A DNA stretch of 64,000 bases, taken from Pseudovirgaria hyperparasitica. Its lineage: Eukaryota. Positions within the stretch are counted from its first letter, which is position 1; each line of letters starts with the position of its first letter. Location of the stretch: NCBI GenBank assembly GCA_010093815.1, contig ML996569.1; one strand, written 5' to 3'. Below are positions 1,713 to 45,672 of this stretch, one piece after another. The position numbers were made by a program, and so were the translations under genes. The notes below the pieces were generated by a model. It had not been told where the DNA came from, did no database searches, and worked only from the letters and a program-made list of their open reading frames with translations.

Positions 1713-1715
1713 TAA
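1685..1715. repeat. 31-bp palindrome, copy 1 (TTATTAGTTAAGGGC-T-GCCCTTAACTAATAA)
   Basis: Perfect 15-bp arms around a 1-nt centre, seen directly in the sequence. Confidence 0.95.
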
Positions 1716-5452: not shown

Positions 5453-5483
5453 TTATTAGTTAAGGGCTGCCCTTAACTAATAA
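5453..5483. repeat. 31-bp palindrome, copy 2 (at the LINE ORF2 3' end)
   Basis: Identical to copy 1. Confidence 0.95.
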
Positions 5484-10229: not shown

Positions 10230-10260
10230 TTATTAGTTAAGGGTAGCCCTTAACTAATAA
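10230..10260. repeat. 31-bp palindrome, copy 3 (2 nt upstream of the LINE ORF1 ATG)
   Basis: Same arms. The centre GGGTAGCCC is the opposite orientation (GGGCAGCCC) with one RIP-type C>T change. Confidence 0.93.
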
Positions 10261-14898: not shown

Positions 14899-15126
14899 TA
14901 TTAGGACTTAGCCTTAGGTAGGACCCGACCTATATATACCTTAGCTAATAGAGTTAGGAGGTAACGTGAAGGGCGGTAAATAGTTACATACTAGATAGAT
15001 TAGCGTCCCTTTATATATATACTCTCGGATTCCTACCGAAAGGGTTCGGTAGTAATTCGTTCTATGATAGAATACACCCCATTGTTCTATCTAACTATAC
15101 TACTATTCAATAACCCTATTCTTACA
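14899..15126 (+). repeat. Putative 3' LTR of the Gypsy element
   Basis: Preceded by the polypurine tract AGAGGGAAGGGA (14883-14894). It starts TAT (RIPed TGT), ends CTTACA and contains a TATA-like run. No matching 5' copy was recognised. Confidence 0.55.
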
Positions 15127-16525: not shown

Positions 16526-19500
16526 TTACTTTACACGCACGAGTCTATAGATAGCGAAGGTCGCGATGATATTAAAAGCCAAATACCCCCAAAGTAATCC
16601 GAAGTTACTCCATTGGCTAGCGTAATCCATCTCTAACGCCTGTAGAAATGAATTGGTGTCGGCAAGCTGGTAGTAAGCGTAGCCGCGCGAGTCGTTCGAG
16701 ATGAGATATCCCCCGTATGTCTTGATGAATGGACTTAGATAATCCGAGCATTCTTGGTTTGAGGGATTAGGGATCTGCAGGACTTCAATTTCGGAGCACT
16801 TCACGGGTTTGAAGGCCATCGAAGACGAATAGATCCCTGAAACGAGATAAGTCAGTGGCGATACGCGGTACATAAACTTCCAAAAGCTTGGCAGGTCTCC
16901 GAATGGCACTAACACCCTATTATCAATGCTAGTTAGCAGTGTAACTTCGGAGCTAAGGATTAATGGGGATAATTACCCGCAAAAGATAAGAATGAGGTAA
17001 AAGAAGAGCTGTGCAAGGTTCACTCCCATCTCAGCGTGCTCGACAGCTGCTATGACAAGGATGGCGAATGTACTAGTGAACAAATAGAACACCCAAACAA
17101 ACAGCATTACGATACCCGCTCTCTCGTGTTGTTCTGCGGCGTCCTCAATACCATTTTGAAAGCCGATCGGGAAGTACCATACAACAAATGCGCCCACAGA
17201 CATGAGAGTTTGCCAGGGTATCTCGACAATAATTTGGGACAAAATAAAAGTAGTCCAGGAGTATGTCTTCGATGGTCCCTCTCGCGCCTCGAACAGAGCT
17301 CTCGATTCAACAAAATGCGGCATAATTTGCTGTATAACTTGACTAAAGCTCATGAAGAAGAGAAACGTTGAGAACATAGAGTTTCGGAGACCTTGGATAC
17401 TTGAGGGGCTCTCCCAGAACGAGAAACCGATGAAGAAAGCCTATAACAGTTAGCATCTAGATAACAAGTATGCTTTTTCACCTACAGTGCCGACGCATAG
17501 CACGAACCGAGACCATATGTAAACAGGGCTGCGCCAGTACTCTTGGAAAGTCCTCATGAGAACATAATATAACTGCGTTTTGAAAGGCGAAGCGTATTCT
17601 GACTGATCTTGAAGCCGCTGCTGGGTCTCTGTACGGAATTCGGTATCAGCGCCACCCGGCTGCGCGCTGATCGTGTCCAGGAAGCGCCGTGTATCGCTAT
17701 ATTCTGCTGATTTCTTCCAGATTTGTGCCCAATTAGGGCTGTCCAGATTCTTCACGGTCGATCCTATTATATCAACCACCCATTCGGCAGGATTCTGATC
17801 GCTTCCACAGCTCAGTGCACCGTGCCGCTCAAAATAACTTGTCATTCTCGCAACTTCACCAAAGTACGCTGTCTCGCCTCCAGCAACAAGAAGCAGGATT
17901 TGGTCGAACTGCTGCAGAATCTGAGCTGATGGCTGATGAACCGTACACATGATTGATTGGCCCTCATGAGCGAGCTTTCGCAACAGTTGGCAGATCGACC
18001 ATGCAGATTGACTATCGAGACCAGACGTTGGTTCATCTATGCACTACTAAGCAATTTGATATGCATCTCCAACTGCGTGACCTTACCAAGAAATAAAAGC
18101 AGTTCGGGCTTCGCTACCATCTCAACGCCTATACTCAGACGTTTTCGTTGCTCAATATTCAGGCCTGGTGACATTTTAGTAACCATGAGATTGACATCCG
18201 AGGACTAAGCTTGCGAAGTCTACCTTGCCCTGGAACGCCAATAACTGCGTGTTGGAATGCTTCCATCTCGAGAATATGGACAATATAGTCAACGTATTCC
18301 ATCTTCTCGGCTTGCGGAGTAATAGCAGACTGCCTCAGCATAGCGCTGAATACTAAAGCTTCTCGTACGGTGCTTGTAGGTTGATGAACATCATCCTGCT
18401 GTACGTACCCAATCTTCCGTTGTGTTGATGTGCTTCGAGGGCTACCATTAACCAATATGTCACCACGTACGTCGCTTGGCGACACTCGATTCGCAAGCAC
18501 GTTCAGCAGCGTCGTCTTACCAGCGCCAGTTGCTCCCATCAATGCTGTGAGACAGCCGGACCGAATGAAGCCGTCAACGCCGTTGATGATCTTCTTGGTG
18601 GTGTTTCGATGATGGACTTCGTAGCAAAGATCTTTCCAGACGAAGGTGGGTCCTGTAGTTTCTTCTGAACTTGGATTGACGCGCCCATGTGACGTGGCTA
18701 CTGGGAGTCGAAGCATCGCGGGTCTTTCCTCATCAGCTCCTCGCGACTTGTAGACCTGATTCCTCTTCTTGAATAGAAGCACTTCGCCCTTGGAGCGTTG
18801 CGCCAGAATCTTCTCTGATGTAAATAGATGAGCCACACAAAATACAAACCCCATGGCAATTATGATACCCAGATTCCTATGATACGTAAGCAATTGAGAA
18901 ATGGACAAGGAATTTACTGACCGCCAAAGATGCGAAGCACGAAAGTCGTAGTTTAGAGCCAAAAAGGAATCACCATCGATCCAGTTCTGACCTGGAACGG
19001 CGCCATTCGTTGCGCATACCCTGTCCAATGGGCTTAGACCCTCGTATGAGGGTCCATAAGGCACAAATCTAGCGCAGTCAAATCGACGCTCAGAGAACTA
19101 GGACTCGTATTAGAATAGCAGGCTTCGGTGCTGGTTGGAACTAACCTCATTTATCATCAGAGCCTCATAGGTATATGACAATGGATTGATGTAGGCTATC
19201 CAGCTTAGCCATGGATGCATGAGCCCGACCGGAATTATGAATCCGGCATAGATAATATAATTGAGGATAAAAATAGCTACGGGAGCCATTGTCTGTTCGA
19301 TAGTACGAGATGAAGAGCCGACCATGCGAAAGAACATAGACATGGTGATGAAGCATGTGAATGAAAAGAGAAACCAGATGAAAAAGGCCTCCGGGGTCCT
19401 TCGGAGATTTGTCATGAAGTAGAGGGCAAGGTTGAAACAGACAGAAGTGAAGACTTTGTTAGGGATATCGCAGATCATCGCCGCTGCCGCTTCGACAAAT

Positions 19501-21120
19501 GGGTGATAGAAACGATATCGATTTTGCTTCTCCACGATGGGACGCTGGGCCCAGATAGTGAGGACTTCGAAAGCACTCATAAACGCGTTCAAGAGTACAG
19601 CGAAGAATATTAGGACGCTACGGTTGTCCAGGCTTGCTGTCGTAGAGTCCTGACCCAAGAATACGCTTCCAACAATGACGGCCATCACAACATTCCCGAA
19701 AGTGCCACTTAATGCCGGCGAGATGTTTCTAGATAGTCTTTGAAAGGCGCGACGTATGCAAAGTAGTATTTGAGACAGGAGAGATATTGTATATGGCGAC
19801 GAATTTGATCTGTAATGCCAATTAGGAATAAATTCAAGAACGTCTGATCTAACTACATCTTACTGGCCTTCCCTGCATGTATTTTCCGGGTGAATGTAGC
19901 ACAGCCGGATCCGATCGGATAGTCGTGTTCATAGGTCTGCAGGTCCTGCAGAAGCTTCGTGCGGCTAGAGCTTCTTTCCCAGTGCTCTGCAAATTGCGTC
20001 GGGCTCCGGAGAAGACTCGATGGAGTGTCTGGGGTTGCAAGCAGTCTCGCCTCAGCCGGATGTGTGATTGCCGTCAAGAAATCCGCTGTCGATACATGCT
20101 TAGGACATTTGAACCCCAACTCCTCGAAGTACGTTTTTGCATTGTTAGTCGTCCCAAAGAATATCTGTCGACCCTCATAGAGTAAAATTACCTTGTCGAA
20201 AGTGTCGAAGATCGCCTGAGAGGCTTGATATATGCTCATTATGATACAGCCACCTGACGAGGTCGCATAGTAGCGTAGTACACGCACGAATGAGAGAGCA
20301 GTAGAACTATCAAGACCTCGAGTGCTGTTATCCCAGAGTTGGAATGGAGCCCAGCTCAGGATGGCTTCTGCAATACTAACGCGTTTCCGTTCGCCGCCGG
20401 ACACTCCTCGAATGACATGATTGCCAATCAGAACACTAGATGCTCGTTCCAAGTTGAACAAAGTGATGAGAGCTGCTTTGAGGTGTTCCGACCACTCCAA
20501 AACGGATTTGCCTACCTGTGGCGAAAGAGCCGTCTTCGCGCGTGCAGCGAAAGATAAAGTCTGATCAACGCTCAATTCCGGGAAGTGAACATCTTCTTCG
20601 GCAGTGTATATCATCTCCCCTGGGAAAAGGCGCCTCATCTGATCTGATGTAATACCTAGTCCAGTAAGTTTAGAAGAGCTGGAGAGCTGGAGAGCTGGAG
20701 GGCATTACCATGATAGTTAAGGCTAGCCTGAGCATCGACATTTATCCCATTCCTGTCACCAGCTAGAGATTTGAGCAGCGTTGAGCAGCCGCTTCCTGGT
20801 CTGCCAAGGACCAGTAGCATCTCGCCGCTCCGGACCACCCCTTCAAAGTCATGGAGAATCTGAACCCTTGTCTTCTTCGAAACCAGCTGAAGACAACGAT
20901 GATAAAAAAGGGTCGGATAACTCAAAACCGTATGTTGGCAATTTTGAAGGCCAAGCGAGCCGAACACGCTTAGTCGAGAAAAACTCACGCTCAAGCGTTT
21001 GCTCGACTGACCACTCGTATTTTCTTTCAAGCGTTGCACATTCTCAAACCAAAGTTGAGCATCGAAAGAATCACGGAGAGGGTCGAGCTTCGAGGCAGCA
21101 GGAGGTTGGGATTTGGTCAT
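16526..21120 (-). CDS. PDR-type (full-size ABCG) multidrug transporter, multi-exon
   Basis: NBD1 motifs [22 protein letters not shown] and WDNSTRGLD, then TMD1. NBD2 motifs [24 protein letters not shown] and DEPTSGLDS, then TMD2 ending [15 protein letters not shown]. Confidence 0.95.
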
Positions 21121-22494
21121 GTTGACACGAAATCTGGTCGGGTAGAATAGAGGAGGGTAGAATGCTAAAAGAGTAGCAAAGTATGTTTGGAGAAAATACA
21201 AGAATTTGAGGACCTGAGAATGAAAGCCTAAGAGGGTTTGTTAGTGCATCGAAAGAGTTGTATAGGCAAGGTCCTCTTTACGTAAGGAAGTAGCTGAAAG
21301 GGCATAACTCCTACCTAAGTGGCACTTATCTACCATCACATGCATCGGAAACTTCAAAACCCTGAATGACACCCCTGACACCTGGTGAAACCAAGACGAA
21401 AGGAAATCGTTAGCCAGGGCCCTGCCTCCAGACAGACTCCCAAGGTTGACCGGACTGTTACATCTCCCCTTGATCCCCCCCCTTCCCCCCTCCTCTCTTC
21501 CCTGCGACAGGTCCTCCCATGCAGAATATTCACACTATAACCAATGTAAAATTTTGTACTTGATGTTGAGGCCACGGTAAATGTTACGGTTCACATGTCG
21601 AAAGAGAGCCGCGAATGAGGATATTGCAGCGAATGTTGCAGCTCAATCGAGAGCCAAGATGATGCAATACCACTTCAAGAAGGACAGAAGTGGCAAGAGC
21701 TCAGGTATAGATAGTTGCACGGTAGTATCTAGCATGACGGATTCGGTGAACGAGTATTTGATGATTGAAGTGATACAATACGATAGTAGTGGCCAACAAA
21801 CTTGCTGCCCCTGACAGCACGAATGCATAACGTTGAGGCGAGGTATGATCCTCGCAAAGCTCAGCAAGATAGCGATGCCAGCGATGAGTCCAACTACGAT
21901 CTATGAATTCTCCCCGCATGATCGATCGATCTTCCATTGCTACATTGGGTCGTCAATCGGTACTAATGGAATAGAAGCAAATAGTCTGTTGGGATCCATA
22001 ATCCTTTAGGATTCATCTTGTGAACGTCTGTTCTGAAGATGTCGTCCACTGTCTGCCGTAAGGGTCTGGCGGATTTGTGCTTCTTATACAGCCGCTCCGT
22101 TCTTAACACTGAACGATGGGATAATGCCAAAGCTAAAGAGAATACTTCGATTGCGTCGAAACTATTCTTTAGAATTGATCGGAGAAACGAGCCACCAAGC
22201 CATCAGATGTCACCTAGCCACATTCAGCCAGTTGCGTTTGGAGGGCTGCCCTCGAAAATACTAGTCGAATGTGAAGACATGCAAGACTGTGGTAATAAGG
22301 CACGGTTTGGAAAGGGAGGGCGGGTATGACAGACTGATGTAACGTCGTTCCCGCGCCGCAAAGATGCGTCGTTCACATGGAAATATCGATCCTCCTCTCG
22401 CCTTTGACCTTAATTTCGCACTACTTGACTTTTCATGTCAAGAGGGCAGTTCTACATAATCTCGAAAACCCTTATCTCTATTACAAATATCACA

Positions 22495-24240
22495 ATGGGC
22501 GACCTTGTGAGAGTGCTTTTCTTCATCTTGGTCGCCGGGCTCGCATTCATCGTATCCGGTATCCGAAAGCTTTTGCACTCTAGGCGCCGCATTACCAAGC
22601 TTCAGAAGGCTGGCCTCGTAGGTTCAACCTTCGCTTCTTGACGAAAAGTCCTAATGCGAAGTCAGCCAATGCCTAAACACAACTTCCTTACAGGACACTT
22701 GCTCGAAATGAAGCGATACATGGACACCGTTCCTTCAGACTCCACCATCAATACTACCATTGCTGCTATGGCGCACGAATTTCCAGGAGGAGTATTCTAT
22801 ATCGATCTTTGGCCGTTCACCAAGCCTCTGCTTATATCCACTACACCTTCGAGCGGGTATCAATTACAACAACATGCCCTTGACAAACCCAAAGAAATTT
22901 CCGATGCCTTTTGGCATCTGACGGGCGGCCCAAACCTCTTCACGATGCCAGAGACTCCTTGGAAACCGTGGCGTACCATCCTCAATCCGGCATTTAGCCC
23001 CGCTCACATACTCACCTTGTCGAAGACCATCGCAACCGAAATGCAAGTCTTTTGCGAGATCCTTGAGGAGAAAGCACATCGAGGCAGCATATTTCAACTC
23101 GAAGACTTGACACTAAAACTTACTGTGGATGTCATAGTAGCAGTAGCTCTGTAAGTATTTTCAGATGAACACTAGCCGTATACTCACGAAAATCTTAGCA
23201 ATACGCGGCTTCATTACCAGCAGAAAGAGAATGCCCTGGCGTCATCCTTGCGAACTTTGATTGAATGGACTTCATTCGGGGATGACCTCAATCCCTTCAC
23301 ACGATATAACCCATTGCGGCCGCTCGTTCAATTCTATCTCAGCCGAAAACTTAACAATCTGATTGAAGTTGAGATTGACCGACAATATTCCGAACTTTTG
23401 GAAGATCAGAGTCTCTCAAAAGAGACAACGAACTCAAAGTCCATCATGTATCTGACGTTGCAGAACTACTTGAATGAGACAAAGAAATCCAAGGAAACTC
23501 AAAGATCTACATCGAAAGGATTGGACCGAAACTTCAAAAACGTGGCAGCTGCTCAGATACGGTTGTTCCTCGTAGCTGGCCACGACACAACCAGCAGCAC
23601 CCTGTTGTACTGCTACTACCTTCTTGGCACAAGCCCCGACGCGATGCGCAAGATCCGCGAAGAGCACGAAAATGTTTTTGGCTCAACGGACGTTTACAAC
23701 GCAATTTCACAAGACGCAACATGCTTGAACCGACTACCATACACATCTGCTGTAATCAAAGAAGCTGGGCGCCTGTTTCCAGCCGCTTCCGCGATGCGAG
23801 GCGGTGTTCCCGGTGTCTCAATCACTGACGATGACGGCAGAGAGTTCCCAAGCGACGGTTGCAGTATTTGGGTCATCCACCTCCTGCTTCATCGGAATCC
23901 CAAATATTGGAAGGATCCCCACGCATTCATCCCGGAACGGTGGTTGATCGAGGACCCAAAAGATCCTTTGCACCCAGTGAAGGGTGCTTGGCGACCTTTC
24001 GAATTTGGACCCCGTAATTGCATCGGGCAGTCATTAGCAACACTGGAGATGCGCATCGCGCTCGCCATGACAATTCGCAAGTTTGACATCAAGCCAGCGT
24101 ATGATGAGTGGGACAAGATTCATAAGAACACGCGCAAGAAGATTGTATTTGGTACCCGGGCATACCAAGTTCAAGGAGGTGGTGGAGGCGCTCACCCGTC
24201 CGCTGGTCTACCATGTGAGGTTTTTGTAAGGAACGGATAG
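22495..24240 (+). CDS. Cytochrome P450 (resembles the StcS/AflN-like group)
   Basis: N-terminal TM anchor, AGHDTT I-helix, EAGR (ExxR), PERW and heme motif FEFGPRNCIG. Introns at ~22618-22665 and ~23151-23198. Confidence 0.93.
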
Positions 24241-24624
24241 GTTGGTAAGGGTCATCACTTAGCTTCATAACATACCAATCAATCTTCTTAAAGATCTCTC
24301 CTCTCACCGGTATGTTTTTTTTCCGCCGCATCTTTCATACGAAACAACCTTGAGTAAGCACAGCAAGTAGCGGAGCTTATGGGGTTCCTGAGATCCATCC
24401 ATCCTATTCTAGCGGCTAGCTCGGTTCGTCCTTCCGATCGGATTCAATGGCAGGCTAGGTACTAAGGACCGCTCGACGGACTACACAGTAGTTCATCGGA
24501 CGCGGAAGGTAGAATCCCCCAGCGCGCTAGATCAGCCACAGTGTTCATCACTTACACCCATATCCATGTATCTTCCAACATTTTATCAATTTCTCGGAGA
24601 GTGTTGTCGACGAATAGTGGCCAC

Positions 24625-24840
24625 CTTGCTGACAGCAAATCGATGACCACTGTTCATGAACCCTCAGTCGTCCCCGGCTCGGTCATACAGCCCTATTCAA
24701 GCTAGCTATGCAGTAGACATGTATCATAAGTTTACCTGTGATGTCGTTGCTGATAGCAAACCGACGATCACTGATCGCGAACCCTCAGTTGTTTTCGATT
24801 GGAATTCGATCCCAATGCCCTGTTCAAGTTAGATTTGCGT
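24625..24840. repeat. Diverged tandem duplication (~120-bp period), possibly an ankyrin-repeat relic on the minus strand
   Basis: ttgctgacagcaaatcgatgaccactgttcatgaaccctcagt versus ttgctgatagcaaaccgacgatcactgatcgcgaaccctcagt. The minus frames read TTEGSRSVIVGLLSA and TTEGS*TVVIDLLSA. Confidence 0.5.
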
Positions 24841-26305
24841 GGAGACTGCATCTTCCGTTTGCCTTGAATCTCTTGGACCCTGGACCTGTTGTGTCTTAGC
24901 AGCAACAGCCTCAGAAGATTTAGGAGCAATTTGGGCGTGAGTCTCATTCCGTTCGGTCCTTGGCGAACACTTGTGCCGCTTGTAATGTAGACTGAAAAAT
25001 TGGCATTGGTGTTGCTTTACAGGGCGTTAGCTGACAAACTATACAGTGCAAGTTCTACCGCCATCATCTGCGTCTTCTAGACTTTGTACGAAGTGTAATC
25101 ATCGAAGAAGCTGCACGATGCGGTATTGGCAGAGGCGCATGCGGCTTCATCACAGGAAGATGGAGAACCCAAACAGTCGCAGCTTCTCAGCTCTCTTATC
25201 TTCGATCAGTCTACGATGAGACTCTTCGGCTTTGAATGTCGTTTGGTCACGATCCGCGTAGGAGCACGAAAGGACTTGCAACTGGGACCTTGGAGAATTC
25301 CTCGGAACGGCGTCTTTCCGAAGGATCCGTCAAGCGGACTGTGAGGAACGAGACCTCATAGTACTATCATCCCGACACGCCCTGAGGATCAAGATTCTTC
25401 TCGAGCTGGACCAGCAGATGTTCCCACGTTCAATATGGATGGAATGGATGCATCCTGGATCCCGTATGGTGGTGGACCGCGAATGTGCCCGGGGCGCAGA
25501 CAACACAAGCTCCCTGCCGTTACACTTCACAAGGAGTGTCGGCGTCCATGACAGAGCCACTAATCTCGAGCTGTGCCATGTTGTTGCATAAAATGATCAA
25601 AGCCATCCATGTGCCGAACGACCACGAAACACTGCGTAGATGTATAGTCTGGAATCTCATCATCAGCTTGAGCTAGATGTCAATCGAAATAGCCTAGTTT
25701 CCTTGCTGCAGCTGCAACTGTTCAGGCATCAACAACTCCCATGACCTGTACGATTACCCTCCACCTACTTGTGTCCTGGTAAAGTATAACATCACTCGGT
25801 ACTGCGCCACACGAAATTGTGAGCATTCCAGGTTGAGGGGCTCGGCCAGCGGTGTCTAGCTTAGGACCTATAGATGGATCCTACCTAGGTAGTAGTAAAG
25901 TCGCTTCCTATCCGCGTCCTTGTAAATCACCTAGATACGCGGTACTCGGTAGTACCTCTTAAACCTTGGAAGAAGAGACGCGCGAAGTCCGAATATATCT
26001 TCCATCTAGTGGCTTCGAAGAGGCTGTGGGCATGTTCGTGTCGCTGTACGAATTGGATTGATGAGGGAGTTCCAAGGTTGGGAACAGCCAAGAGCCAAGC
26101 CTGGTCGCGTCCCCCAGCCAGTTCTACCTAGTACGTAACATTCAATTAGTAAAAAGTTACGAACGGTTATTAAGGTACGTTCGACTGATTACCTCGGAAG
26201 CTTGTGATAGTATGTACTTAAGTTTAACGGCTAGGCTCGCAGATAAAAGCTCCTGACCAGCCACGTTACTATACGTTCGTGTCTTGACTATTATGTATTC
26301 AAGCC

Positions 26306-27840
26306 ATGGCCTCGAATAAGAACGGGAAGCCAGAAGGAACTGACCCGTGTCTAAGAATCGTGCCACTAGGATTGAACGACGACACTTTCATTAATCGCTG
26401 CGTTGTTGTCAGTGTACTCCTCAAGTTTGATCACAAGTTAGAAACGACAAAGTTGCGCCTTGCACTTGATCGCTTACTCCAATTTCCAACATGGAACAAG
26501 CTTGGGTCGCGAGTGCGGAAGAAGGTCAGCTTCATTATTACTCTTATGTTTTGCGCTAAGTAATGAATCAGAACTCACGATTGGAATTTCACATTCCTCA
26601 CAGCTTTTGCTCTGAGAGACCTGGATACCTCTGGTCCGCAGAATCGACAGCATGCCCGATTGAGAAGCATGTAGCTGGTTCTCAGATTCCATCTCGCTTC
26701 GACAAAGCTTTCGTGGCAAGCTCACCAGACGCTTTGAGACCTCTGATTTTTGATCACGATGCGCCAAGACGACTGCGTGACTACTTAAATGGGGACACTC
26801 CACTTCTTGCTATTCGTGTTATGACATTCGATGACGCGACTACCGTTGCTGTCTCGTGGCCTCACATCATGTCGGATGTGAATGGCATACGGTCATTCTT
26901 AGACGCGTGGAGTCTGGTCATGGCAAAGAGGGATGCAGAAGTCAAATCCTTGCATGGTTTCGATTTTGACCCTCTTGAACCACTGGAGCACCGGGGTCGT
27001 CCCGAGGATTGGGCCCATTGCGACTACATATTGAGTACGCGTCAAAAGGTCAAATGGATAGGTCGCCTTACAGGGGAACTTGTCCGGTATCGGGATTTCG
27101 AGTGGAGGACCTTCTGCCTTCCTTTAGCCCATATTACCAGCCTGAAGAAACTCGCGCTCGAAGAGATGCAGCGTACCGAACCGTCGCCTACGCGGCCGCA
27201 TTTCCTCAGCGACGGCGACATCATCGTTGGCTTTGTCACTCGTATACTAGCTTCGTCACTTCCAACACGATCGGTCGCCATATTCTGTGCTCTATCAATC
27301 CGTAAGTTGTTTCCAGACATCTTTCCACCTGATAAGATCTTCATTGGGAATGCGCTGAGTGCGACCGTGACATTGATACCAAAAGGCGGATCCCCTAGTA
27401 AATCTGTAGGCTATATTGCTGCACATTTTCGTAAAGAATTGAATCTACAGGCGACACAACCTCAACAAGAATCTCTCATGGCGATGAACAGTGCTGCGTA
27501 TCGAAAAGGGAGACTGCCTGAGGCGGCAGTAGGAGACTCGTCAGCAGTGGTATTGGCCTTCACCAATTGGACTCAGGCGCGCTTCTTTGATATTGATTTT
27601 AGCGGTGCGCTGCGTAATGGTGATCACAATGACCCTGCCAGGGCACACCCAGTACTCACCAAGCCATCGTATGTGGGTCAACTGGAGACTGCAAGCCAAA
27701 GGCCCAATTCAAGATACTTGACTGTCATCAAAGGCCAAGATGCAAAAGGCAACTATTGGATCGATGGGGTGTATAGGAAAGCGACATGGGAGGTGATAGT
27801 TCGCTTACTGCATGACATCAACAACGACAATACGACCTGA
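26306..27840 (+). CDS. CoA-dependent acyltransferase (BAHD/transferase-fold, HxxxD)
   Basis: Catalytic WPHIMSD motif and C-terminal NWT..FFDIDFSGA (DFGWG-like). Intron at ~26525-26571. Confidence 0.8.
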
Positions 27841-27887
27841 TAAATCAATGTTCATCCATGGTTCCTGTACAGATCTCTAACAGTTCT

Positions 27888-29687
27888 TTATACCTCTTTG
27901 AAAGACTCTGCACTCCGCACTTCGAAGTCTCTCAGCGCAGCAGCGTCACTTTCACCCCATGGGAATTCCTTCTCTGCCTGCATAATGAGGGTCTTTTTTG
28001 CGTCACTTCGGGGCATGACCATCGCAATATACTTGATCGGGTGGCTAACAACACCGGGCTCGAATTTCAACTCAGGCTCAACAGTCTTACCACTACTGTC
28101 TACCGGCTTCAAAATATCAAATACAGCTAAGGCTTGGGCAATAGTGACGAACAAAGCGTTATCTGCAACGTGACGGCCTGGGCAGACGCGTCGACCGTAG
28201 CCAAACGTCCAAGTGCGCGGATCCGCTTCAGGAGTATGTGTTGGTGACGCGAGAAAGCGTTCTGGTTTGAATAGACTTGGGTTCTGGTAGACAGTAGGAT
28301 CATGGGTGAACCACCTGGGAACAAGTCAGAACGTCGAGTGCCCAGAGCACAGATGGATAGTATCATGCACGCACCAGTTGTTCGGAAGGAGCAAGGCGCC
28401 TTTGGGGATACGATATCCATTGATGCTGTCATCCTTATCGGCGCAATGTGGCAGCGCCATCGGAGCGACCGGATGCCAGCGATGGACTTCTTTGACAATA
28501 GCATCAATGTACGGTAGTGTTCCTTTATCGGCGCTAACGGGGAGCCTGTCACCGCCAATGACGCGGTCAAGCTCCTCCTGTGCTTTTTTCTGTACGTTTG
28601 GGCACACCATCATAGCAAGGAAGAAGGTCATCAGGGATGATACAGTTGTGTCCGCACCGCCCAGATACATGGACGACGCGGACCACTTGTGTATGCGCTC
28701 CATCTGGGCATCGGCGCCGATGTTCTCCAGAGCCTGAGTGAGAAAGGATGTCTTGGCCTTACCTTTGCGCATTTGTTCTTTCACGAACTCATATGGACGC
28801 TCAGTAGTCTCTTGCAGCTGCTTAGCCATGCTACGCGCCGTGCCTTTGAATCCGGCGCCAGGAGCCCAGTCCGGAAGAAAACGCACTATGACTGTTAGCG
28901 CCTCCGGACCGTTGAAAGAAGCATTTCCATCATGTTGATCAACTTACAGAACGGGAAAACATCCACGAGGTATTTGCCTGGTACGGTCGAATCTGCAAAT
29001 TCATGCATGGTCTTGACCGCCATATCGACCAGGGGATCCTTGCCATCGTGTTTCGGTGTGTAGCCGTACGTGATGCGCAAGATCACAGCCCCAGCCTGTT
29101 TCTCAATATGGTCGAACAGGTCTTCTGGGGCTCGAAGGATGTTCTGAAGGAAATGTGCAGCTTCTTCTTCTTGCACGCGATCAAAGACAGAGACAGCAGT
29201 GCTTAAACCGGCTACCTTTGCGATATTCTTTCGGTGCTGGCGGAATACTTCCGTATACCCGCTCATAGCTAACGTATTGTTCCATCCGATCCTGTGTTTG
29301 GGCGGTCAGTGATTGCATACTGAAGCTAATTTGTATCGTAGTTTACATCTGACTGCTGAAAAACATATTCGGCCGACCAGAGTGGACCGCCGCCCTGTCC
29401 CTCAACAACTCCAATGCGATATTGGCGTCATTAATGATCACGAAAGTATTGCCCAGCACCGTGATCGAGCTAATCGGACCATAAAGTTCCTTATGCTTGA
29501 GCCAGTGGTGGCATTCCAGCTCACCTGGCTTTGGTAAATCATTTACATTACCTAAAACCGGTAAACCCCTCGGACCTGGAGGCAAAGGCAGACTGCTTTT
29601 GTTCGAGTACCTTGATGCGCGGTAGGCGAGGTACAGCCCGGCGACAACGAGAAAAACAAGCAGGTTCGTAACAATGAGGCCAGCCAT
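27888..29687 (-). CDS. Cytochrome P450 (OrdA/CYP64-clan-like)
   Basis: TM anchor plus PPGPRGLP, GGADTT, EVHR, KPERF and heme motif FGYGRRVCPG. About three short introns. Confidence 0.93.
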
Positions 29688-31178
29688 ATTGGAAAAAGCA
29701 ATCGGCGAACGGGCCCCGGGGCAGCAGGGACGAAGGTATAAAGTTCCAGTTACATGGTGGAGCGTAATCATCGAACCACGACGCCTGCTTAGGTGTGAAA
29801 CTTGTTGCATGCAGTCGACCGACGGGCTCCACTGTGTAGATGCTGTTGGCTCTTGGCGAGCAAGGCCCAGAACAATGGTCCGGACTGTGACAAAAACCTA
29901 CGTACGGAATGCCTTCCATTCCCAAGAGCAAAGGCACGAATGGAACTTCAGTGGGTGGAGAGGGCGGATGCAGCATCTCTGATCCGCGACTCGAGACTGG
30001 ATCAGATACTATATGTTCTGCAGAAAAGCCCCTCTTACATGGTGCCGGCGGCTGATACATTGCGTCCGCTGCTAACTACTTTCAGTGTTTGTGAGCGTTG
30101 CGTGCCCCACCATGTGTGCTGGCAAGATAATGAGCTTGAACGAGGCGTCAAGGACCCACGGCAACCACTAACAAATCTTGTGTGGCTCACATAACAGCAC
30201 AATGATCATAGCTATTCCTTACTTAATGTAGCTACAACGGAATTCTATCCATAGCCCAGAGCAACACCATAATCGCCAGCCATACACGTTGCCCACTGTC
30301 AAAGCTGTGCCCGGGACAAAATTTCCCACAGACCCACCATTTACATCAAAACAAAGTCTGGTACAAGGGTTCGTGCCGCCCCATACCCTGCTTGCCGCCC
30401 CGTTCCTCCGCACCCCACACTCGGCAGTGTATTAATTCGCCATCATAATGTCCGGCACTAGGGACTTGTCCGGACCCGTGCGCGGAGCTGGTAGCTAATG
30501 CCGATAGACTGGGCTAGGATAGTGGAGGACAGGGATCCTGCTTGACCTAGAAGTGGTGGCAGCTTATCAAAAGCAGCGCCGTAAAAGAAATATGGCCAAC
30601 CATATTCTAGCGATCCTCATATCAATCCTGGTGGGCGCAGAACTGGTTATAGCAGAGACTATGGCGACTAAAAAGCGTTTTAGACAGCGACGATCAGGGA
30701 ACCCATTCCCTTTTAGTGCCCCTGTGGCGTCTTCTGAATGGGACGCCACGCTGGATCCACTTCGAAACGTCCATCACCATCGATCGTAGCAGCAGACTCT
30801 ACTATAAAGCGAGATTTAGCAATGCTTCCAAAATCACTAGTCACTTCGTACAAGAGTGCTCCTACAGCCAACAGGCCTGGATTCCAGGATCAGGAGAGCG
30901 ACTCTCTTGGCAGTACACACGCTCTTGAACCCAGCAGCGACACTAATACCCAATTCCCTACGTTCGCATGATTCGATAAAGAATCTTGTGGGTTCTACGG
31001 ACGAATTCTGACGACTCGAGCTTCAAGGGTCTCTTTGCCTGTCCAGGGGCAACAAAAAACAGTCTTTCATTATCACAGTATTTAGCATTGGTCTACACCT
31101 CCGCGTTTGTGTCCTTGGATATAGTTTTCAATCTCATGCAATTGGTGCCCTTGGACGTTGGCATTGAATATCACGAAA

Positions 31179-32698
31179 ATGAAGACAGCCGGCCTATTCC
31201 TTACGCTTTGTGCAGCGGTACATATTGTCGTTGCACAGCAAAGTGCATACGACTTTCTCGACACACTTCCAAGTTGTGCGGTAAAGTTTCACTCATCTCG
31301 GTGTCTCATCTATCGCTAATATTCCTTCAGTCACGTTGTGTAGTGGCCAGTCTATCAGCCTCAGCCTGTGCATCAGATGATTTCAGTTGCCTATGCTCTG
31401 ACGCAAATTTCCTAGCCGTCTCCGCTGCCTGTAATAATGCCAACTGCACAATGATCGAAACTTTGGCAGCAACAAATCAAACCTTTGGGATATGTGGTAT
31501 CAAGATACGCGATCAAAGTGCTCTCCTAATAGGGTTGTCAGCTTCGGTAGGAAGCGTGGCTTTATTAATGGTCATCGTTCGATTGCTCGATCGCGGGATA
31601 TCCATGACTGCAGAATTGGGATGGGATGATCTGCTTATCGGCGTCTCTGGGGTATGTCTCGCAAGATTGCATATATACGGTATGCATAGTAACTGACGCT
31701 TCTTTAGGTCTTGTCCATCGGTATGAATGGTCCTGTCATCGCCGCCGGAGTTATGGGATTCGGACGAGACATGTGGGCAATGACACCTGATAACATCACC
31801 GCAAGTTTGAAGGTAAGGCAACCTCCTCTGCCCTTTCAGCTCCAGGTATGATAGCTCACTAAATCGACAGGTTCTCTACGTCGCGTACTTCACTTACATG
31901 CTTTCCGAATGTTTTTGTCAGCTCTCAATCCTCGCATTCTACCTTCGCATTATGGTCAATAAAAAAATCCGCATGGCTGTGTGGGTCCTCATCATAATGG
32001 TGATCGGTTTTGGTATTGGCAACACAGTCGCCATGATATTCCAATCTACGCCAATTCGTTACTTCTGGGATGGTTGGAAAGGAGACATGGTCGGCTACTA
32101 TGGGGTGGACGTTCGCTTGTTCGGTTTCATACGCGGTTCATTTGAGATTTTGCTTGATCTGGTCATTCTGAGTTTACCGCTGCCAATGCTGCTGGCTTTG
32201 CAAATGAGCAGAAAGAAGAAAGCGCAAATCATCAGTATGTTCTGTGTGGGGTTTATCATAACGATCGTAAGTTGCATCCGGCTGTGGAGCTTCGTGAGGT
32301 TTGCTCAGAGCACGAATCCGACTTGTAAGTCTAATCCGTTCTCCTTATTGATATGTCTGCTGATACAGAAAGATGATAACACTGCTGGCCTCATTACCTG
32401 CGCCACTGAGGGTAACCTCTTCATCGTAGTTGCTTGCATGCCTGCAATGCACGCTTTCCTTCGGCGCACCTTCAGAAGCGCTCGCAACAAATACGGATCC
32501 GGGACTCGCGTTCAGTATGACAGTGGACATGCCAGTAAAGGGTCATACGTGCGACATGATTCCAGCAGTCAGAAGAATGATCATCTTCCCTTTGGCGTGA
32601 TCAACAAGACAACCGATGTTACAGTTTATCACACTAATCGCTCCAGCTCCTCAGATGTTGAGCTAGTACCCATTGACGGCCCCATGCGGTCTCTATAG
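31179..32698 (+). CDS. CFEM-domain PTH11-like GPCR (fungal rhodopsin-domain membrane protein)
   Basis: Signal peptide MKTAGLFLTLCAAV and a Cys-rich CFEM (LPSCA|SRCV..C..DFSCLC..C...C). Also LGWDD, SILAFYLRI, DLVILSLPLP, F.VG.....S.IRL and ACMP. Several GT-AG introns, the first at 31281-31330. Confidence 0.88.
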
Positions 32699-34842
32699 GA
32701 TGCTTGGATGTATCATTGTGTATTGTTTAATGTATAACGATCTCGTATGTAGCAACTGTAAATTGCTCCCGTTTCTCTACGAACTTACAATCGACATGGC
32801 TCAGCCTTTCTTTAGTCATAGGCCCAGTAGACTTCATTGAACTCTTACATAAACATGAGATTAGCCGTAATGTCACTCACGACTCTACAGTGAATTCCAT
32901 ATATAGATCAGCTTCGTTTTGCCGCATAGACGGCTAGGGAATTGTGGTAGTGCGGATTCTGAATAATTCTTGACCGCATCTTATTGAATACGACTAAGAG
33001 TCGTCACTCCCGAATATACTCGTTAAGACCTCAATCAGGCCTACAAATGCGAGGTTGATGGCTATAGAGACTAGGGAGGAATAGTTTTGGGCTGATACCG
33101 ACATTAAGCAGAGACAATTTCAAATTCAGGGTACTAGGTGAGTATCGGCCTACTTTAGTGTGGCGTTTGTCAGATAACTTCTAGCATGCATAGATTGTGG
33201 TGACTCTGCGGAAGGTATCACAACTGGAAGCCGTGTCTGGTTGGCACCGTGTGAGTAGCCTATGGTTGTGGTCAGGTATTATAGCCCTAAGGATACTGGA
33301 GATATTTGTAGATGTTTTCCGTGTTATGAACGGAAGATCCAGAAGATGGACAGAATAATCGAGAAACTGTCAGGACGAACCTTGTCGAAACGCAGTATGA
33401 TGCAAGGGGGCTTAGTTATCTAGAAAGTATCGATTTGGTACCCGAAGACGCGTCTTAGCTATACTACGAGGCGTGTCCCCTACTAAAGAAGAGAGAGCGT
33501 TTGCGGCTTGGTTTTATGGTTCCCTGGACAGATGTCACATAGGTTTCCCTGACCCGTAACGCAGCCACATCTCACGCGCCTCTATGATCGACCGGTTCTT
33601 ATTATGACTTCGTATCCACGTTTAGTCGCTGCACTTTATCCATAGCATCAAATAATTTTCCTTCCAGGACCGAATTCCGCAGATACTTTGCCAGGCGACT
33701 CTTCATAATCAATGACACACTCAGCTGAGGCCATATCTTACTAACAGGACCAGATACAGGACTAAGCACTACCTTAAATAGGGCGAGACAAACTGCGGTA
33801 TGAGATCTCATAGTTGCTATACACATGGTCCTCGTCTTGGTTAAGGGAGCGAAGGAGACGATTTGTGAGACCATGCTTGCGGGAGTCTTAAGATGAGCTA
33901 CACGATCCAGTAGATCCAATGGCAGTTCAAGAACATGAGAATGCGTTGTAAGCAAAGGCCAATCGATCTACACGAGGACCGCATAATCGAACCAGCGTAG
34001 GAACCGACCACTGGAGAGAAGATAAGTATAACCGCTGTTTACCCAGACAGACACAGGCATCTGTAGATAATTAGGACGTCTCTGTACTATACAGGGAGAG
34101 TTAATGCGCACCAGGGTTTGTGAACAAGTCAAGCAGGTCCTGAGCGTGCTCGTTCGAAATGCCACACAGCTATGAGCGCATCGGAGCATGGGATCTAAGG
34201 AGATCTCACTGCTAGCGGGATGTCTTGACGACTAGCCACCGGTAATTTCAAGAATATAGATGTCTTCGCGGAGGTGAGCCATTTTTATTTCTAGGGTCAG
34301 AGGACGAAACTAGTACTTATCATCAATCCATAGTGCAGCTACAATGTAGGGATCAGCTTTAAAGTATGAGTTTACTCTATGTCTCGCTCAACTTTTGTAG
34401 AAGGAACAACTCTCTCTATCACACTAGTTATTAGCGTTGTATACTTAAGTCTCATCCTGTAGACTTGATCCTTTAGACAATACAACTTCATCAGACTTCA
34501 ACAACTTTTACACGTCCGACACTATTTAATGCAGCCTTCCAGGTTATGTCGCACTTTGTCACTACAATTTTTTCCTCATCTTCTTCCTGCTCAGTTCGCC
34601 ATTAATCTGTCTAGCATAGCAAGAGCAGCCGGAGTATTCAGATCTCCCGTAACAGGGTTTGTAGCATACAGATCGCCGAGGGCTTGCTCAGTCATATGTC
34701 AATGATAGTCCGTAGCTAGCCGTAAGTCCTGTGATGCAGCACTGTACTATTCATGCTATACCATTAGAGATCGATATGGTATATTCCAATGATGAGAATA
34801 CTAGAGTCATCGATATTATAGTGACAAACCGCATTATAGGGT

Positions 34843-41071: not shown

Positions 41072-41983
41072 CTACAATACCTGCATATCTAAAATCTCCC
41101 TTTCCTTCCCAAATACTACCCGGACATGTCTTCCCTCTCCATTCTCTTTTCCCACAAACAAGCCTTTCCTCAGACGCCCCAGATACATTTCGTAACTTGG
41201 CATATACCCCTGAATGAACTCCTCAACCTGCTCATCACCCATCCCAGTCCCTTTCGTCTGGATCAATGTATGTTCCTGCTGCGATCTCCACATATACACA
41301 TTCTCTAGTTTCTCTGTATCCAGATGAATGAAACAATCAAACGAGTCTGGTCCCATAAATGAACGACAATACCTCGTGAGATTCCGGTTCAGCTCCAGCA
41401 GATGCTCGATGTGATGCATTGGCAGTGTATTGGTCAGTGACACAGGGCTCTCTGATGCCTCTTTCAGTTTCATGCTGAGATCATCCTCTGAAATCGGCTG
41501 AAAGCCCACGCACCACCCCTCGAACACCACGACCTGCACTGCAGACTCAACCACAGGCCACTGCTCCTCTGGCACACGATCGCCTTCACCATCAAACCTG
41601 CTTTTATCAAACATGGGGATCCGCACAGGCTCGGTTCCCTTCCTTCCTCCCTTCATCGCATCAAAGAAGCGGCTCGCTAGTTGCTCATCATGGGTTCCTG
41701 GCTGGCCTCTCGTGCGAAACAGTCTGTTCTCTGGATTCTCATCCCGTAATCTGATGAGTTGAGCGTGTGTGAGGTAGAAGTCATCGAGTGAGACGGTGAT
41801 TGCATTGAGATTATGTTCTGTTGATAACAAGGCGACGATCGCGTGAGCCCATGTTGATTTGCCGGAGCCCTGTAAACCGGAAACGCCGATAAAGACTGGT
41901 TGGGAGGGGTCAGATGCTACTTTATGCTGAATCTGTGGAAGAAGAAGGTTGAGAACTTTGCAGGCGCTGACTTGGACGACCAT
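41072..41983 (-). CDS. P-loop kinase of the Tda10/plant-type D-glycerate 3-kinase (GLYK) family
   Basis: GLQGSGKST, SLDDFYL, TRGQPGTHD, FDKS..GEGDR, EGWCVGF, WR.QQE and YMPSYE. Confidence 0.85.
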   Translation of the reverse strand: MVVQVSACKVLNLLLPQIQHKVASDPSQPVFIGVSGLQGSGKSTWAHAIVALLSTEHNLNAITVSLDDFYLTHAQLIRLRDENPENRLFRTRGQPGTHDEQLASRFFDAMKGGRKGTEPVRIPMFDKSRFDGEGDRVPEEQWPVVESAVQVVVFEGWCVGFQPISEDDLSMKLKEASESPVSLTNTLPMHHIEHLLELNRNLTRYCRSFMGPDSFDCFIHLDTEKLENVYMWRSQQEHTLIQTKGTGMGDEQVEEFIQGYMPSYEMYLGRLRKGLFVGKENGEGRHVRVVFGKEREILDMQVL

Positions 41984-42570
41984 TGTGTGGAAATGCTGTT
42001 TGTCGTTGTGGAATGATCATGAGGTTTCAGGTCGAATCACGGATGCAGACATCGTGTTGGTGTGGGGTATCGGATTGAATAGTAGCAAATGGGTACCTAG
42101 ATTTTGAAGTTCAAACATCAACCACTGTGATGCGTAGAGTCATCAGCTTGAAGGTCGTTGGCTCGTCTTAGATATCATCTCCCACAATTCTCATCCGGAT
42201 CGCTCCCGGAGTTGATGGACTTGACGCTTGAGGCGTTGGGTGTTCCTAAGATACCGGCATTGGGAGACTCCACGAGCTCACACAGTTTAGTTCCGACTAT
42301 GAACAGCATCTCTCCGTCTCACCGTATTGTCTGTCATACACCAAACTAGTCTTCTGCAGAAGCCAGCTCACAGTCTCGAAAAACTACCTATGCAGCACAT
42401 ATGCGCGCGCATGTCTCAACCTCTAGTTTATCATGTTCGAGCTTCGTCAGTGGGGCATTAACCAAAACAATACCCCACCAAATATACCATGTGTTATATG
42501 GTCTTCTTGATCCACACCTCATATATAACTCCTCCGAACATCTCGATCATACCATCGTAGAACAGTGGCA

Positions 42571-43776
42571 ATGTCCCCTGCGACTCCCTCCCGCAAGCAT
42601 TCCATCGCTTGTATACCTGCAGACGGCATTGGGCCCGAAGTCATTAGTGCAGGCGTCGCCGTCCTGAAAGAACTTGCTGCCCTGGACGGCACATTTGAGC
42701 TCATATTCACAAACTACGACTGGAGCTCTGCGACATATAAGAAGAGTGGCAAATATATACCCGATGGCGGCCTTGAGAGTCTCAAGAAGCATGATGCGAT
42801 TCTATTCGGCGCCGTGGGCGCCCCAGGTACGTTCCGCCCAATTTTCTTTCCTATTTCACACTGCGCTTTCTTCTCGGGACTACAAAATGAGTAGGACGTG
42901 TGCGAGTATTGGCCAACACACATAGATGTCCCCGATCATATAAGCCTCTGGGGTCTGCGCCTCGCAATCTGCCAACCACTCCAACAGTACGCGAATGTGC
43001 GACCAACGAAGATCTTCCGTGGCACACAGTCTCCACTACGTGCCACGTCCGCCGGTGATCTTGACTGGGTGATTATACGCGAGAACAGCGAGGGTGAATA
43101 CGCGGGCCAAGGAGGGCGGTCACACGTCGGGCAGCCGTGGGAGACTGCAACTGAAGTAAGCATCTTCACTCGACATGCTGTAACGAGATTACTGGAGTTT
43201 GCTTTTGAAATGGCGCGGAAGAGGCCAAAGAAGCATATAATTGTTGTGACGAAGAGTAATGCGCAGCGCAATGGTATGGTCATGTGGGATGAAATCGCGA
43301 GTAGTGTGGCAAAGAGATTTCCGGATGTGACAGTGGAAAAGATGTTAGTAGACGCAATGACGTGTAGGATGGTGCTACAGCCGAGCAGTATCGACACTAT
43401 TGTCGCGACGAATCTGCATGCTGACATCCTGTCCGACCTTGCGGCTGCATTAGCTGGAAGTATCGGTATTGCACCAACGAGTAATTTGGACCCGACAAGG
43501 CAGAACCCGAGTATGTTCGAGCCGATCCATGGGAGTGCGTTTGATATCACTGGTAAAGGGATCGCAAATCCGGTGGGTACATTCTGGACGGCGGCAGAGC
43601 TGTTGAAATGGCTGGGTGAGGAAGAGGCGGCGGCCAACATGATGGAGTGTGTGGAGAACGTGTGTGAGGCTGGAATTCTGACGAGAGATCTGGGTGGCAA
43701 GGCAGAAACGAAAGAAGTTACGGAGGCGGTAATTGCGGAGTTGAGAAGATCATATCTTCTTGCTAAGAAGGATTGA
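42571..43776 (+). CDS. Tartrate dehydrogenase/decarboxylase (TtuC/DmlA-like; isocitrate/isopropylmalate dehydrogenase family)
   Basis: IPADGIGPEV, PDHISLWGL..QYANVRP, RENSEGEY, DILSDL and FEPIHGSAFDI. Intron at 42827-42925. Confidence 0.88.
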
Positions 43777-45672
43777 ATCCCTTTGAAGTTGCCGGTGTTG
43801 TAGACTGTTCATAAGTCCACTGCATTGGATATGCTTTTCACTTGGCCTGATATCTTGACCTCACTGGCGGAAAACCAAGGTAGCTATCAAGTACATTCGC
43901 AGCTATAAGGTTTCTTTTGAACAATCAGGGATATCATCAATGGACTTGACTTGGATCTCGTTTCTGCCAGTTGACTTTCTTTGAAGCGCTAAGCTTGTTG
44001 GGTAACTAGAGCACGGTCAGCGAAATCAATTGACCGTTATAGGACTTATTTGCACCCCCATTAGGCTCAGACCTGCGCCCGTAGAATGGGTCGACGCGCA
44101 TATGATCTTCCCAGAACGACTTCCGGTTATAGTTCCAAGAATATTGCATTGGGATTTCAAGCTTGGCGACTGTCTGGAAACGGTATTTGTCTTGATGCCA
44201 TGGGATTCTGACACATTTCCCAAGCTGTTCGTCCAGATTTCTAAGTAGCTGACTGAAATAGGTATTCGACTTGGTGAACACCATGGCATCCATTTAGCCA
44301 CATGTCCAAGGTGTCCTCTGGGCCATCAGCTGTCACAATCTCCTTTCCAGGGTCTTTTGGGTCGCAGTATTTGGTACAAGCCTATACTTGCAAACATAGT
44401 CACCAGATCGATAGGCGGGTCGGGAGCGTACAGGGGAGTTTCGAGTTGCGTATTATGGAGCTAGTCAAGTCCTGGCTGTAGATCGGTATCCTGGCGCTTT
44501 TCCAGTGCCTTGTAGTACTCCTCCTTGCTATCGTATCTCGAACGAAGTTCGAAAATCTCGTTTGTGGTTTTCGCATCGGCAACCTCATGCACAGGAGCTG
44601 AATTAAACTCGATGTCTTAAGTCGGAATACTTTTACTTGCGTCGAAGAAGTCACCTTTTACGTTGAACACCAATATAGCAAGTTCTCTGGACTTCAGAAT
44701 ACGATCGTGCGGGCCTGGATCGCCCGATTCAGTACTATGACGAAGTGCAGCAGGATACTCTGTTTGCTTGTGGAACAGCTCGGTCTGGCTCAGGTGTGCT
44801 GGCAGGTCGTGCTCAACCTCGAAAACACCCCCGAGGAGTCCTTAGTGCGAGCGTGTGTACCTAGGCTAGATTAAAGGTCTGATGAAGGACTTATATAAAT
44901 TGATGAAGTTACCTCCAAACGCATGACAACATTTATTCTATTGCCCCTATGGCATCTGATTGATCTTTTCGGCAACGGCTTGAACCTGCTCTTCATCTGC
45001 TGGTATCTTGGTAACGCCATTGGCGTTCCAGTGGATGTACCTCCTGCTTCGTAAATTTGGCATACTGAGTATTTAGTTTGGAGAATCCTTGCCCGCCATA
45101 AGATGACTGAGGCAATGGAGCTATCATAGCTCTTAACAATGTGGACGACTCGGGGCCGTTGACTTATTAAGCCCACTGATGTCAGTACTCAGACGAAGAC
45201 CAGCAAGACTAGTCTTGCAGACTACCACTCACCTGCAGATGGCTTTTCACTAATCTACGATTGGCTCTAATGGCAAATGTAAATGTTGATACATTTCATC
45301 TCAGGGAACACGCATCTTTCTGTAGCAGACGGCGACCGGTCTTGCGTGATCTTTAGGCCATCGCTAAAAGTCTCACTAGATAGATGTCTTTCTCGTTGCG
45401 CGAAGGACAGATTGAACTTTGCACACTCCATAAATTTAGCTCAGCACTGCATCCGTGTATAATTCCGATACGATTGACGCGCACCAACGTCTAGACGTTG
45501 TAGAAGTCGCTCGGCGCTAGTGATCCATGGCCTTTACGAAGCCACCTGGTGGAACGTCCGCACCGAACATCTGTTACAACACACCACCAACATGGCCCTG
45601 CACGTTTAGACCATCCCCCGAACCATGCCCTGCCATTCATGCTACATCTAACTACAGCATCTTTCTCCTACA

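Follow-up and report, generated by a model that had tools for sequence, protein, structure and literature searches.

A divergent glycerate kinase and tartrate dehydrogenase gene pair in Pseudovirgaria hyperparasitica as the probable core of a fungal tartrate-use cluster

The locus

Two genes stand head to head in the window, by which we mean the whole 64,000-nucleotide stretch of contig ML996569.1 of Pseudovirgaria hyperparasitica (assembly GCA_010093815.1) that was analysed: a class III glycerate kinase on the minus strand and a tartrate dehydrogenase/decarboxylase on the plus strand (Table 1). An earlier note on this DNA, made from the letters alone, had put the spacer between them at about 590 bp, which agrees with the measured 587 nt. 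The genes flanking the pair include RAD52, a WD40 protein, guanylate kinase and septin. Downstream of the dehydrogenase, at 44464-44841 on the minus strand, a stop separates two short protein-like frames; neither matches Pfam, and together they may be what is left of a gene.

Positions 1-16500 of the window are AT-rich, with a GC content of 31-43%, and carry a strong RIP signature (TpA/ApT 1.6-1.7, (CpA+TpG)/(ApC+GpT) 0.17-0.30); they are probably inactivated repeats at the contig end. Beside this region, at 16973-32700, lie a PDR-type ABC transporter, two cytochrome P450 genes, a weak transferase-family match and a gene with a fungal rhodopsin domain, which may form a small secondary-metabolism or detoxification group.

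Table 1. Features of the divergent gene pair, in window coordinates
Feature	Position	Strand	Remarks
Glycerate kinase gene, class III (GLYK/Tda10-type)	41072..41983	-	Intronless ORF, 303 aa; dehydrogenase-linked clade
Divergent promoter/spacer, 587 nt	41984..42570		Without CGG-N11/12-CCG; 5 SYGGRG hexamers against a shuffle mean of 1.5
Palindrome TCCGG-N7-CCGGA = TCCGGATCGCTCCCGGA	42194..42210		Present; unconserved, probably chance
Tartrate dehydrogenase/decarboxylase, exon 1	42571..42826	+	Gene 42571-43776, one intron
Intron, GT..AG, 99 nt	42827..42925	+	Spliced product is the 368-aa record P0123
Tartrate dehydrogenase/decarboxylase, exon 2	42926..43776	+	Carries the W-G-L-R-L-A-I-C signature (A. 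vitis TtuC subtype)

The kinase

The earlier note had placed the kinase in the Tda10/GLYK family, an assignment borne out by the reading frame, by sequence matches in the PDB and by the fold. The best PDB match is the D-glycerate 3-kinase 6ckg (E 5.9e-44), and 1odf (yeast YGR205w), which we take to be Tda10, and the GLYK structure 7xpc are also found. The predicted model (pLDDT 93) gives TM-scores of 0.85 to 6ckg, 0.77 to 1odf and 0.78 to 7xpc. Pfam alone returned no GLYK-specific match for this protein; the P-loop kinase fold is present together with Walker A, SLDDFY, RGxPGTHD, FEGW, WRxQQE and YMPSY, the full set by which we recognise class III. Judging from its fold and from its family, as tabulated in the part of PMC2063504 available to us, the enzyme would convert D-glycerate and ATP to 3-phosphoglycerate, the product given there for class III glycerate kinases; the fungal role cited in the same part is glycerol metabolism, in Neurospora. 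Three queries against the window's own genome recovered no second GLYK, linked or unlinked, and the window kinase was the sole match.

The dehydrogenase

The plus-strand gene, described earlier as a TtuC/DmlA-type dehydrogenase, is real, and its spliced product is identical to the record P0123, labelled Pseudovirgaria hyperparasitica tartrate dehydrogenase. It scores 511.3 bits against the TIGR02089 tartrate dehydrogenase HMM, above the cut-off of 470.4, and falls under the cut-off of each of the IPMDH, HICDH and ICDH models. TIGR02089 likewise covers E. coli DmlA (565 bits); within the family the window enzyme lies on the TtuC side, with about 65-66% identity to TtuC of Agrobacterium vitis and 44% to DmlA.

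The substrate helix separates the two sides. It reads WGLRLAIC in the window enzyme and WGSLLKFR in both Pseudomonas putida TDH (3flk) and E. coli DmlA, so that the arginine at 3flk position 98 is replaced by cysteine and, by alignment count, an arginine stands four residues earlier instead. The position-98 arginine presumably binds a substrate carboxylate, and the earlier position presumably lines the side-chain pocket in isopropylmalate dehydrogenase. We therefore define, by sequence and for the present analysis, a DmlA/P. putida TDH subtype with the position-98 arginine in WGSLLKFR, from which the window enzyme departs, and an A. vitis TtuC subtype with W-x-L-R-L-x-I-C and greater similarity to TtuC than to DmlA, to which it belongs and with which it groups on the tree. 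The TtuC signature is found in 118 of the top 120 fungal matches (the other two are pattern mismatches), in all 17 kinase-linked loci described below and in A. vitis TtuC. Most of the top 120 fungal matches are labelled 'D-malate dehydrogenase (decarboxylating)' in UniRef, and PDB searches returned no solved structure of the TtuC subtype. The window protein is 78-87% identical to most of its orthologs and keeps the remaining active-site motifs, and both frames of the pair are intact. From family and subtype, we infer that it would act on tartrate to give D-glycerate.

A second gene of the tartrate dehydrogenase family lies elsewhere in the same genome (G000:C4:1307800-1308970; loci L003 and L009). 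It is 62% identical, unlinked and without a kinase nearby, forms a long branch on the tree, and keeps the canonical arginine in WNLILPIR.

In a quick tree of the dehydrogenases (165 columns, 104 rows), with redundant and distant bacterial rows left out and modest support overall, the fungal sequences fall into a single clade (support 96) that sits among bacterial representatives of the subtype. Acquisition of the gene from bacteria by transfer is a possibility and no more.

Linkage across fungi

A metagenome scan with a 27-sequence kinase alignment gave 194 confirmed loci, of which the best 80 were taken. A dehydrogenase gene stands next to the kinase gene in 17 of these best 80, divergently in 13 and in tandem downstream in four. 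In the remaining 63, the locus is too short for a verdict in 28 cases, and linkage is absent on both flanks in 18 and on the upstream flank only in 17. Clustering at 85% identity reduces the best 80 of 194 to 51 groups, 13 of them linked. The remaining window genes have no match in any of these 80 loci.

On a quick ML tree of 97 kinase rows there are two clades, one of 58 rows (SH-aLRT 100) that holds the window kinase and all 17 linked loci, and a paralogous one of 39 rows in which none of the 26 informative loci is linked. Within the 58-row clade, the nine informative loci of a Pleosporineae subclade (27 rows, support 99) are all unlinked, and every one of the 17 informative loci outside that subclade is linked. 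An old linkage with a single loss would explain this most simply. The earlier note had suggested that tartrate breakdown would give the Tda10-like kinase a physiological role; since the linked kinases occupy their own paralogous clade, apart from the unlinked fungal GLYK clade, that role does not extend to Tda10-like kinases overall.

Among nine named species, with adjacency inferred from accession order, the two accessions are consecutive in six (Lentithecium fluviatile, Zopfia rhizophila, Venturia nashicola, V. inaequalis, Coniosporium apollinis and C. tulheliwenetii) and distant, hence unlinked, in three (Plenodomus lindquistii, Pyrenochaeta sp. and Ascochyta lentis). The reach beyond these species comes from metagenome contigs: the kinases of L038 and L045 are 72-73% identical to named Penicillium proteins, that of L039 is 62% identical to a Colletotrichum protein, and the dehydrogenases of L042-44 and L052-58 group with Phlyctema (support 85). 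A kinase of the linked type also occurs in Aspergillus niger and Penicillium. Synteny of the pair is thus conserved in many filamentous fungi and lost in Pleosporineae, and the pair shows what marks a fungal metabolic gene cluster, adjacency of functionally linked genes kept across lineages.

Fuller versions in relatives

Several relatives carry additional genes. An orthologous MFS permease (72-86% identical) follows the kinase in L034, L037, L039 and L042-44, and the MFS of L038 differs (24% identity). A Fungal_trans protein, 40-58% identical among loci, is found in L037, L038, L039, L042-44 and L045, and a further, short regulator, whose Cys-rich motif is split by an intron, in L037, L038, L039 and L042-44. 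The Penicillium-like loci L038 and L045 add GAPDH and a sugar porter. Within the flanks covered, the Pleosporales-like linked loci and the window have the two enzymes only, and the neighbours common to linked loci include no reductase. The regulators adjoin one another at L037:9016-12600, L038:14631-18092, L039:13286-16479 and L042:3954-7151; the Fungal_trans protein, in which no Zn-cluster was seen, and its short Zn2Cys6-like companion are possibly the halves of a split transcription factor.

An MFS gene near the unlinked kinase of L022 is unrelated to the cluster permease (26-30% identity). The 1003-aa protein P0395 combines a fungal dehydrogenase with a Fungal_trans protein (29% to the cluster regulator) and had seemed a true fusion of dehydrogenase and regulator; its dehydrogenase part is the canonical-arginine paralog, and the model probably merges two adjacent genes. 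The Monascus neighbour P0585, also 1003 aa, has no dehydrogenase match.

In the window's own genome the cluster regulators were not found, the best candidates reaching E 3.6e-11 and 1.2e-13 against <1e-74 for orthologs; the searches score best candidates only, exon by exon, and the absence of the regulators is thus unproven. The best MFS there is only 58-62% identical and unlinked; this gene, on contig C22, was considered as the cluster permease and is probably a paralog, given the 72-86% seen among orthologs. The window genome probably retains the two-enzyme core only, with its lone kinase also serving general glycerate salvage.

The spacer and promoter sites

The earlier note had likened TCCGG-N7-CCGGA in the spacer to a Zn2Cys6 site. 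The palindrome is there, and the regulatory reading is not supported: it recurs in none of ten spacers of relatives, and when the window is cut into 80 tiles of equal size, 26 of them hold a comparable inverted repeat (5-bp arms with CGG/CCG, 0-18 nt apart). We therefore reject it as the regulatory site. The same class of repeat appears in 388 of 1000 shuffles of the spacer, and the palindrome is probably due to chance.

The relatives share a different element. CGG-N11/12-CCG is present in 9 of their 10 distinct divergent spacers (shuffle mean 1.7), and none of 500 shuffles attains nine spacers, whichever adjacent pair of spacings is taken. The strict form, CGGA-N9/10-TCCG, is present in eight of the ten (shuffle mean 0.15) and was not found in the tandem loci. 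Of the 14 strict sites in five cluster loci, 13 precede cluster genes (MFS, GAPDH and regulators among them), judging from ORF coordinates, and one falls inside the short regulator. Among unlinked Pleosporineae kinases, 8 of 15 also have the site upstream, and among kinases of the other clade none of 28, in rows that include near-identical loci. CGG-N11/12-CCG is missing from the spacers of the window and of L025/L026, and when the whole genome was searched for the pattern, 72 matches came up, with the control at 71. A supposed decayed copy at 42300-42316, spotted by eye, falls outside the top 12 weight-matrix matches of the window, and we do not claim it. With the palindrome in none of ten relatives and their common site lacking here, co-regulation of the pair in the window genome is only putative.

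SYGGRG hexamers, which we take to be the CreA-type consensus, are more numerous than in shuffles, on average, in 10 of the 11 spacers (window and relatives), as would fit carbon catabolite repression.

Bacterial neighbourhoods

Around 80 bacterial loci of each subtype, in counts inflated by related genomes, a TtuA-like LysR regulator accompanies 31 of the TtuC subtype and none of the DmlA subtype, TtuB 17 and none, and pyruvate kinase 8 and none. A DmlR-like regulator is not enriched beside the DmlA subtype (2/80 vs 5/80). That the TtuC subtype always stands beside a glycerate kinase in bacteria had been suggested by Thalassospira, A. vitis and Klebsiella, and this failed: a glycerate kinase lies within 5 kb in 10 of 80 TtuC-subtype and 5 of 80 DmlA-subtype loci (p 0.28), so that a kinase neighbour is not predicted by subtype. 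In Thalassospira (L106, L114, L119, L121-L125 and others) dehydrogenases of both subtypes flank a MOFRL glycerate kinase in one operon, suggesting that they differ in substrate or isomer.

Expression and literature

Botrytis and similar fungi consume tartaric acid in grapes (review PMC7970118). In the part of PMC7824268 available to us, Botrytis was grown on moss with 5 mM ammonium tartrate in the medium and on PDA as control, and four very highly expressed moss-only genes are annotated as D-malate dehydrogenase, GAPDH, D-glycerate 3-kinase and MFS transporter; the discussion centres on oxalate and virulence, not tartrate. These annotations coincide with the cluster's four, a match made by annotation alone and with moss tissue as a confounder. 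A Colletotrichum-moss study on tartrate medium (PMC8401727) names neither enzyme in its text or the one supplement covered.

In the literature searched, with few subscription papers and little older biochemistry, there is no description of the fungal cluster and none of its genes is named. Main-text term searches of PMC8022950, PMC3087541, PMC7895386, PMC5153877 and PMC11772331 gave nothing on the pair; in the main text of PMC5153877, on galactaric acid in A. niger, tartrate and glycerate go unmentioned, and PMC8022950, as far as that text goes, places a putative tartrate dehydrogenase of Cryptococcus in a different cluster without a kinase.

Discussion

We consider it probable that the two enzymes form the core of an old cluster with which filamentous ascomycetes use tartrate, and the likeliest route through it, one that we would on balance back with some confidence, would lead from tartrate through D-glycerate to 3-phosphoglycerate. 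The TtuC-type enzyme, dependent on NAD+ and a metal, would oxidise tartrate at C2, release CO2 and re-reduce the product to D-glycerate; its substrate would most likely be the isomer found in plants, L-(+)-tartrate. The class III kinase would then form 3-phosphoglycerate, from which carbon would flow into lower glycolysis or gluconeogenesis. In the fuller versions the acid would be imported by the MFS permease, a Zn2Cys6 regulator would act through CGG-N11/12-CCG, and some lineages would add a dedicated GAPDH. The linked two-step tartrate route proposed in the earlier note is upheld in its adjacency and its TtuC subtype, and gains the site in relatives and the indirect co-induction in Botrytis; it loses the Zn2Cys6 site. 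The pointers to co-regulation, namely the shared site and the Botrytis annotations, come from relatives and would apply to the window, whose spacer lacks the site, only by extension.

The adjacency in this genome might be a relic of the ancestral cluster, with a housekeeping kinase and a pair neither co-regulated nor used on tartrate; the regulators were not found (E 3.6e-11 and 1.2e-13), the conserved site is lacking, and the kinase is the only GLYK found. Against this, neither frame is broken, the dehydrogenase keeps its other active-site motifs and shares 78-87% identity with most orthologs, and the best-candidate searches leave the absence of the regulators unproven. We regard the relic as unlikely, while taking it seriously, and it concerns regulation in the window genome, not the biochemistry of the family. 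That the dehydrogenase is mainly a D-malate dehydrogenase giving pyruvate, with the kinase serving a minor meso-tartrate branch only, would fit the UniRef names and the span of TIGR02089, which takes in DmlA, and the tartrate dehydrogenase/DmlA family is promiscuous. This seems quite improbable, however: identity to DmlA is 44% and the substrate helix differs, the conserved partners glycerate kinase and GAPDH are needless for pyruvate formation, and the unlinked canonical-arginine paralog in the same genome is the better D-malate candidate.

The cluster could also be real and serve another hydroxy-acid that gives glycerate or hydroxypyruvate, for example a product of ascorbate or of a sugar acid, with tartrate as a side substrate; in one variant tartrate would yield oxaloglycolate or hydroxypyruvate, which an unlinked reductase would turn into glycerate. 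In favour of such a reading, the missing position-98 arginine bars copying specificity from known enzymes, the top 120 fungal matches show the subtype to be common in fungi of many lifestyles, and the Penicillium-like loci carry a sugar-porter transporter and a different MFS. It is nevertheless rather improbable, since the tartrate-utilisation regions of A. vitis use the same subtype (in the part of PMC9219206 available), no reductase is among the neighbours common to linked loci, and the Botrytis induction coincides with tartrate medium in the available part of its source. Chance adjacency of unrelated metabolic genes might be argued from the lack of linkage in Pleosporineae and throughout the paralogous kinase clade, but 13 distinct groups are linked, in two orientations and with all flanking genes changed, and share extra genes and a promoter site; conserved linkage refutes this reading, which we find scarcely credible.

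If the pair is indeed a tartrate core, a broader scenario may be sketched, as a conjecture rather likelier to fail than to hold. A bacterial TtuC gene would have entered an early Pezizomycotina ancestor and recruited a duplicated class III kinase, a permease and a two-gene regulator (the short Zn2Cys6 protein and the Fungal_trans-only protein) acting on CGG-N11/12-CCG, to become the genetic basis of L-tartrate use in filamentous ascomycetes, convergent with the bacterial operon through unrelated parts; the one-turn shift of the arginine would make the subtype a true L-tartrate decarboxylase, unlike TDH/DmlA.

The genes of this route have been described in grapevine bacteria and apparently not yet in fungi, where the candidate pathway is now complete with enzymes, transporter, regulators and site; the linked-type kinase occurs also in Aspergillus niger and Penicillium, which are easy to work with. 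Two enzyme subtypes lumped by databases as 'D-malate dehydrogenase' are separated, and a difference in their substrates is predicted. The comparison further suggests that a cluster for carbon catabolism can be switched on by ammonium tartrate, which media for fungi and mosses routinely contain as nitrogen source; the medium may thus account for one published 'host-specific' expression signal.

Comparison with known systems

The window kinase resembles the class III kinases (plant GLYK, yeast YGR205w and Cryptococcus 6ckg) in sequence, fold and motifs, and differs from them in belonging to a separate Pezizomycotina clade tied to the dehydrogenase. P. putida TDH (3flk) and E. coli DmlA share their family (TIGR02089, PF00180) and the other active-site motifs with the window enzyme, which differs in the arginine moved four residues away from position 98; because of that loss, specificity is not transferable from these characterised enzymes. 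The L-tartrate decarboxylase of Pseudomonas sp. Ve-2, presumably EC 4.1.1.73, performs the reaction that we propose and is likened to the window enzyme by reaction, not sequence. The cited accounts describe it as NAD+-dependent, converting L-tartrate to D-glycerate with a yield of nearly 100% (cited in the available parts of PMC11009771 and PMC8788829).

The closest counterpart is the tartrate-utilisation operon ttuABCDE of Agrobacterium (Allorhizobium) vitis, bacterial tartrate regions being covered in the parts of PMC9219206 and PMC3333776 available to us. Its dehydrogenase is of the same subtype (W-G-L-R-L-x-I-C), and ttuC, like the fungal genes, stands beside a glycerate kinase, an MFS permease, a regulator and a glycolytic enzyme. 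The parts themselves differ. TtuD is a class II/MOFRL kinase that yields 2-phosphoglycerate (per the available part of PMC2063504), whereas the fungal kinase is a class III GLYK; the regulators are Zn2Cys6-type in fungi and LysR in A. vitis, the glycolytic enzyme is GAPDH in the one and pyruvate kinase in the other, the fungal MFS is only 25-37% identical to TtuB, and the fungal genes are separate eukaryotic genes instead of an operon. TtuD (MOFRL), the LysR protein TtuA and the pyruvate kinase TtuE have no match at E 1e-5 in the 80 fungal kinase loci (best 80 of 194). The fungal module works like the bacterial ttu operon, yet with its other kinase class and other regulators it is no member of it.
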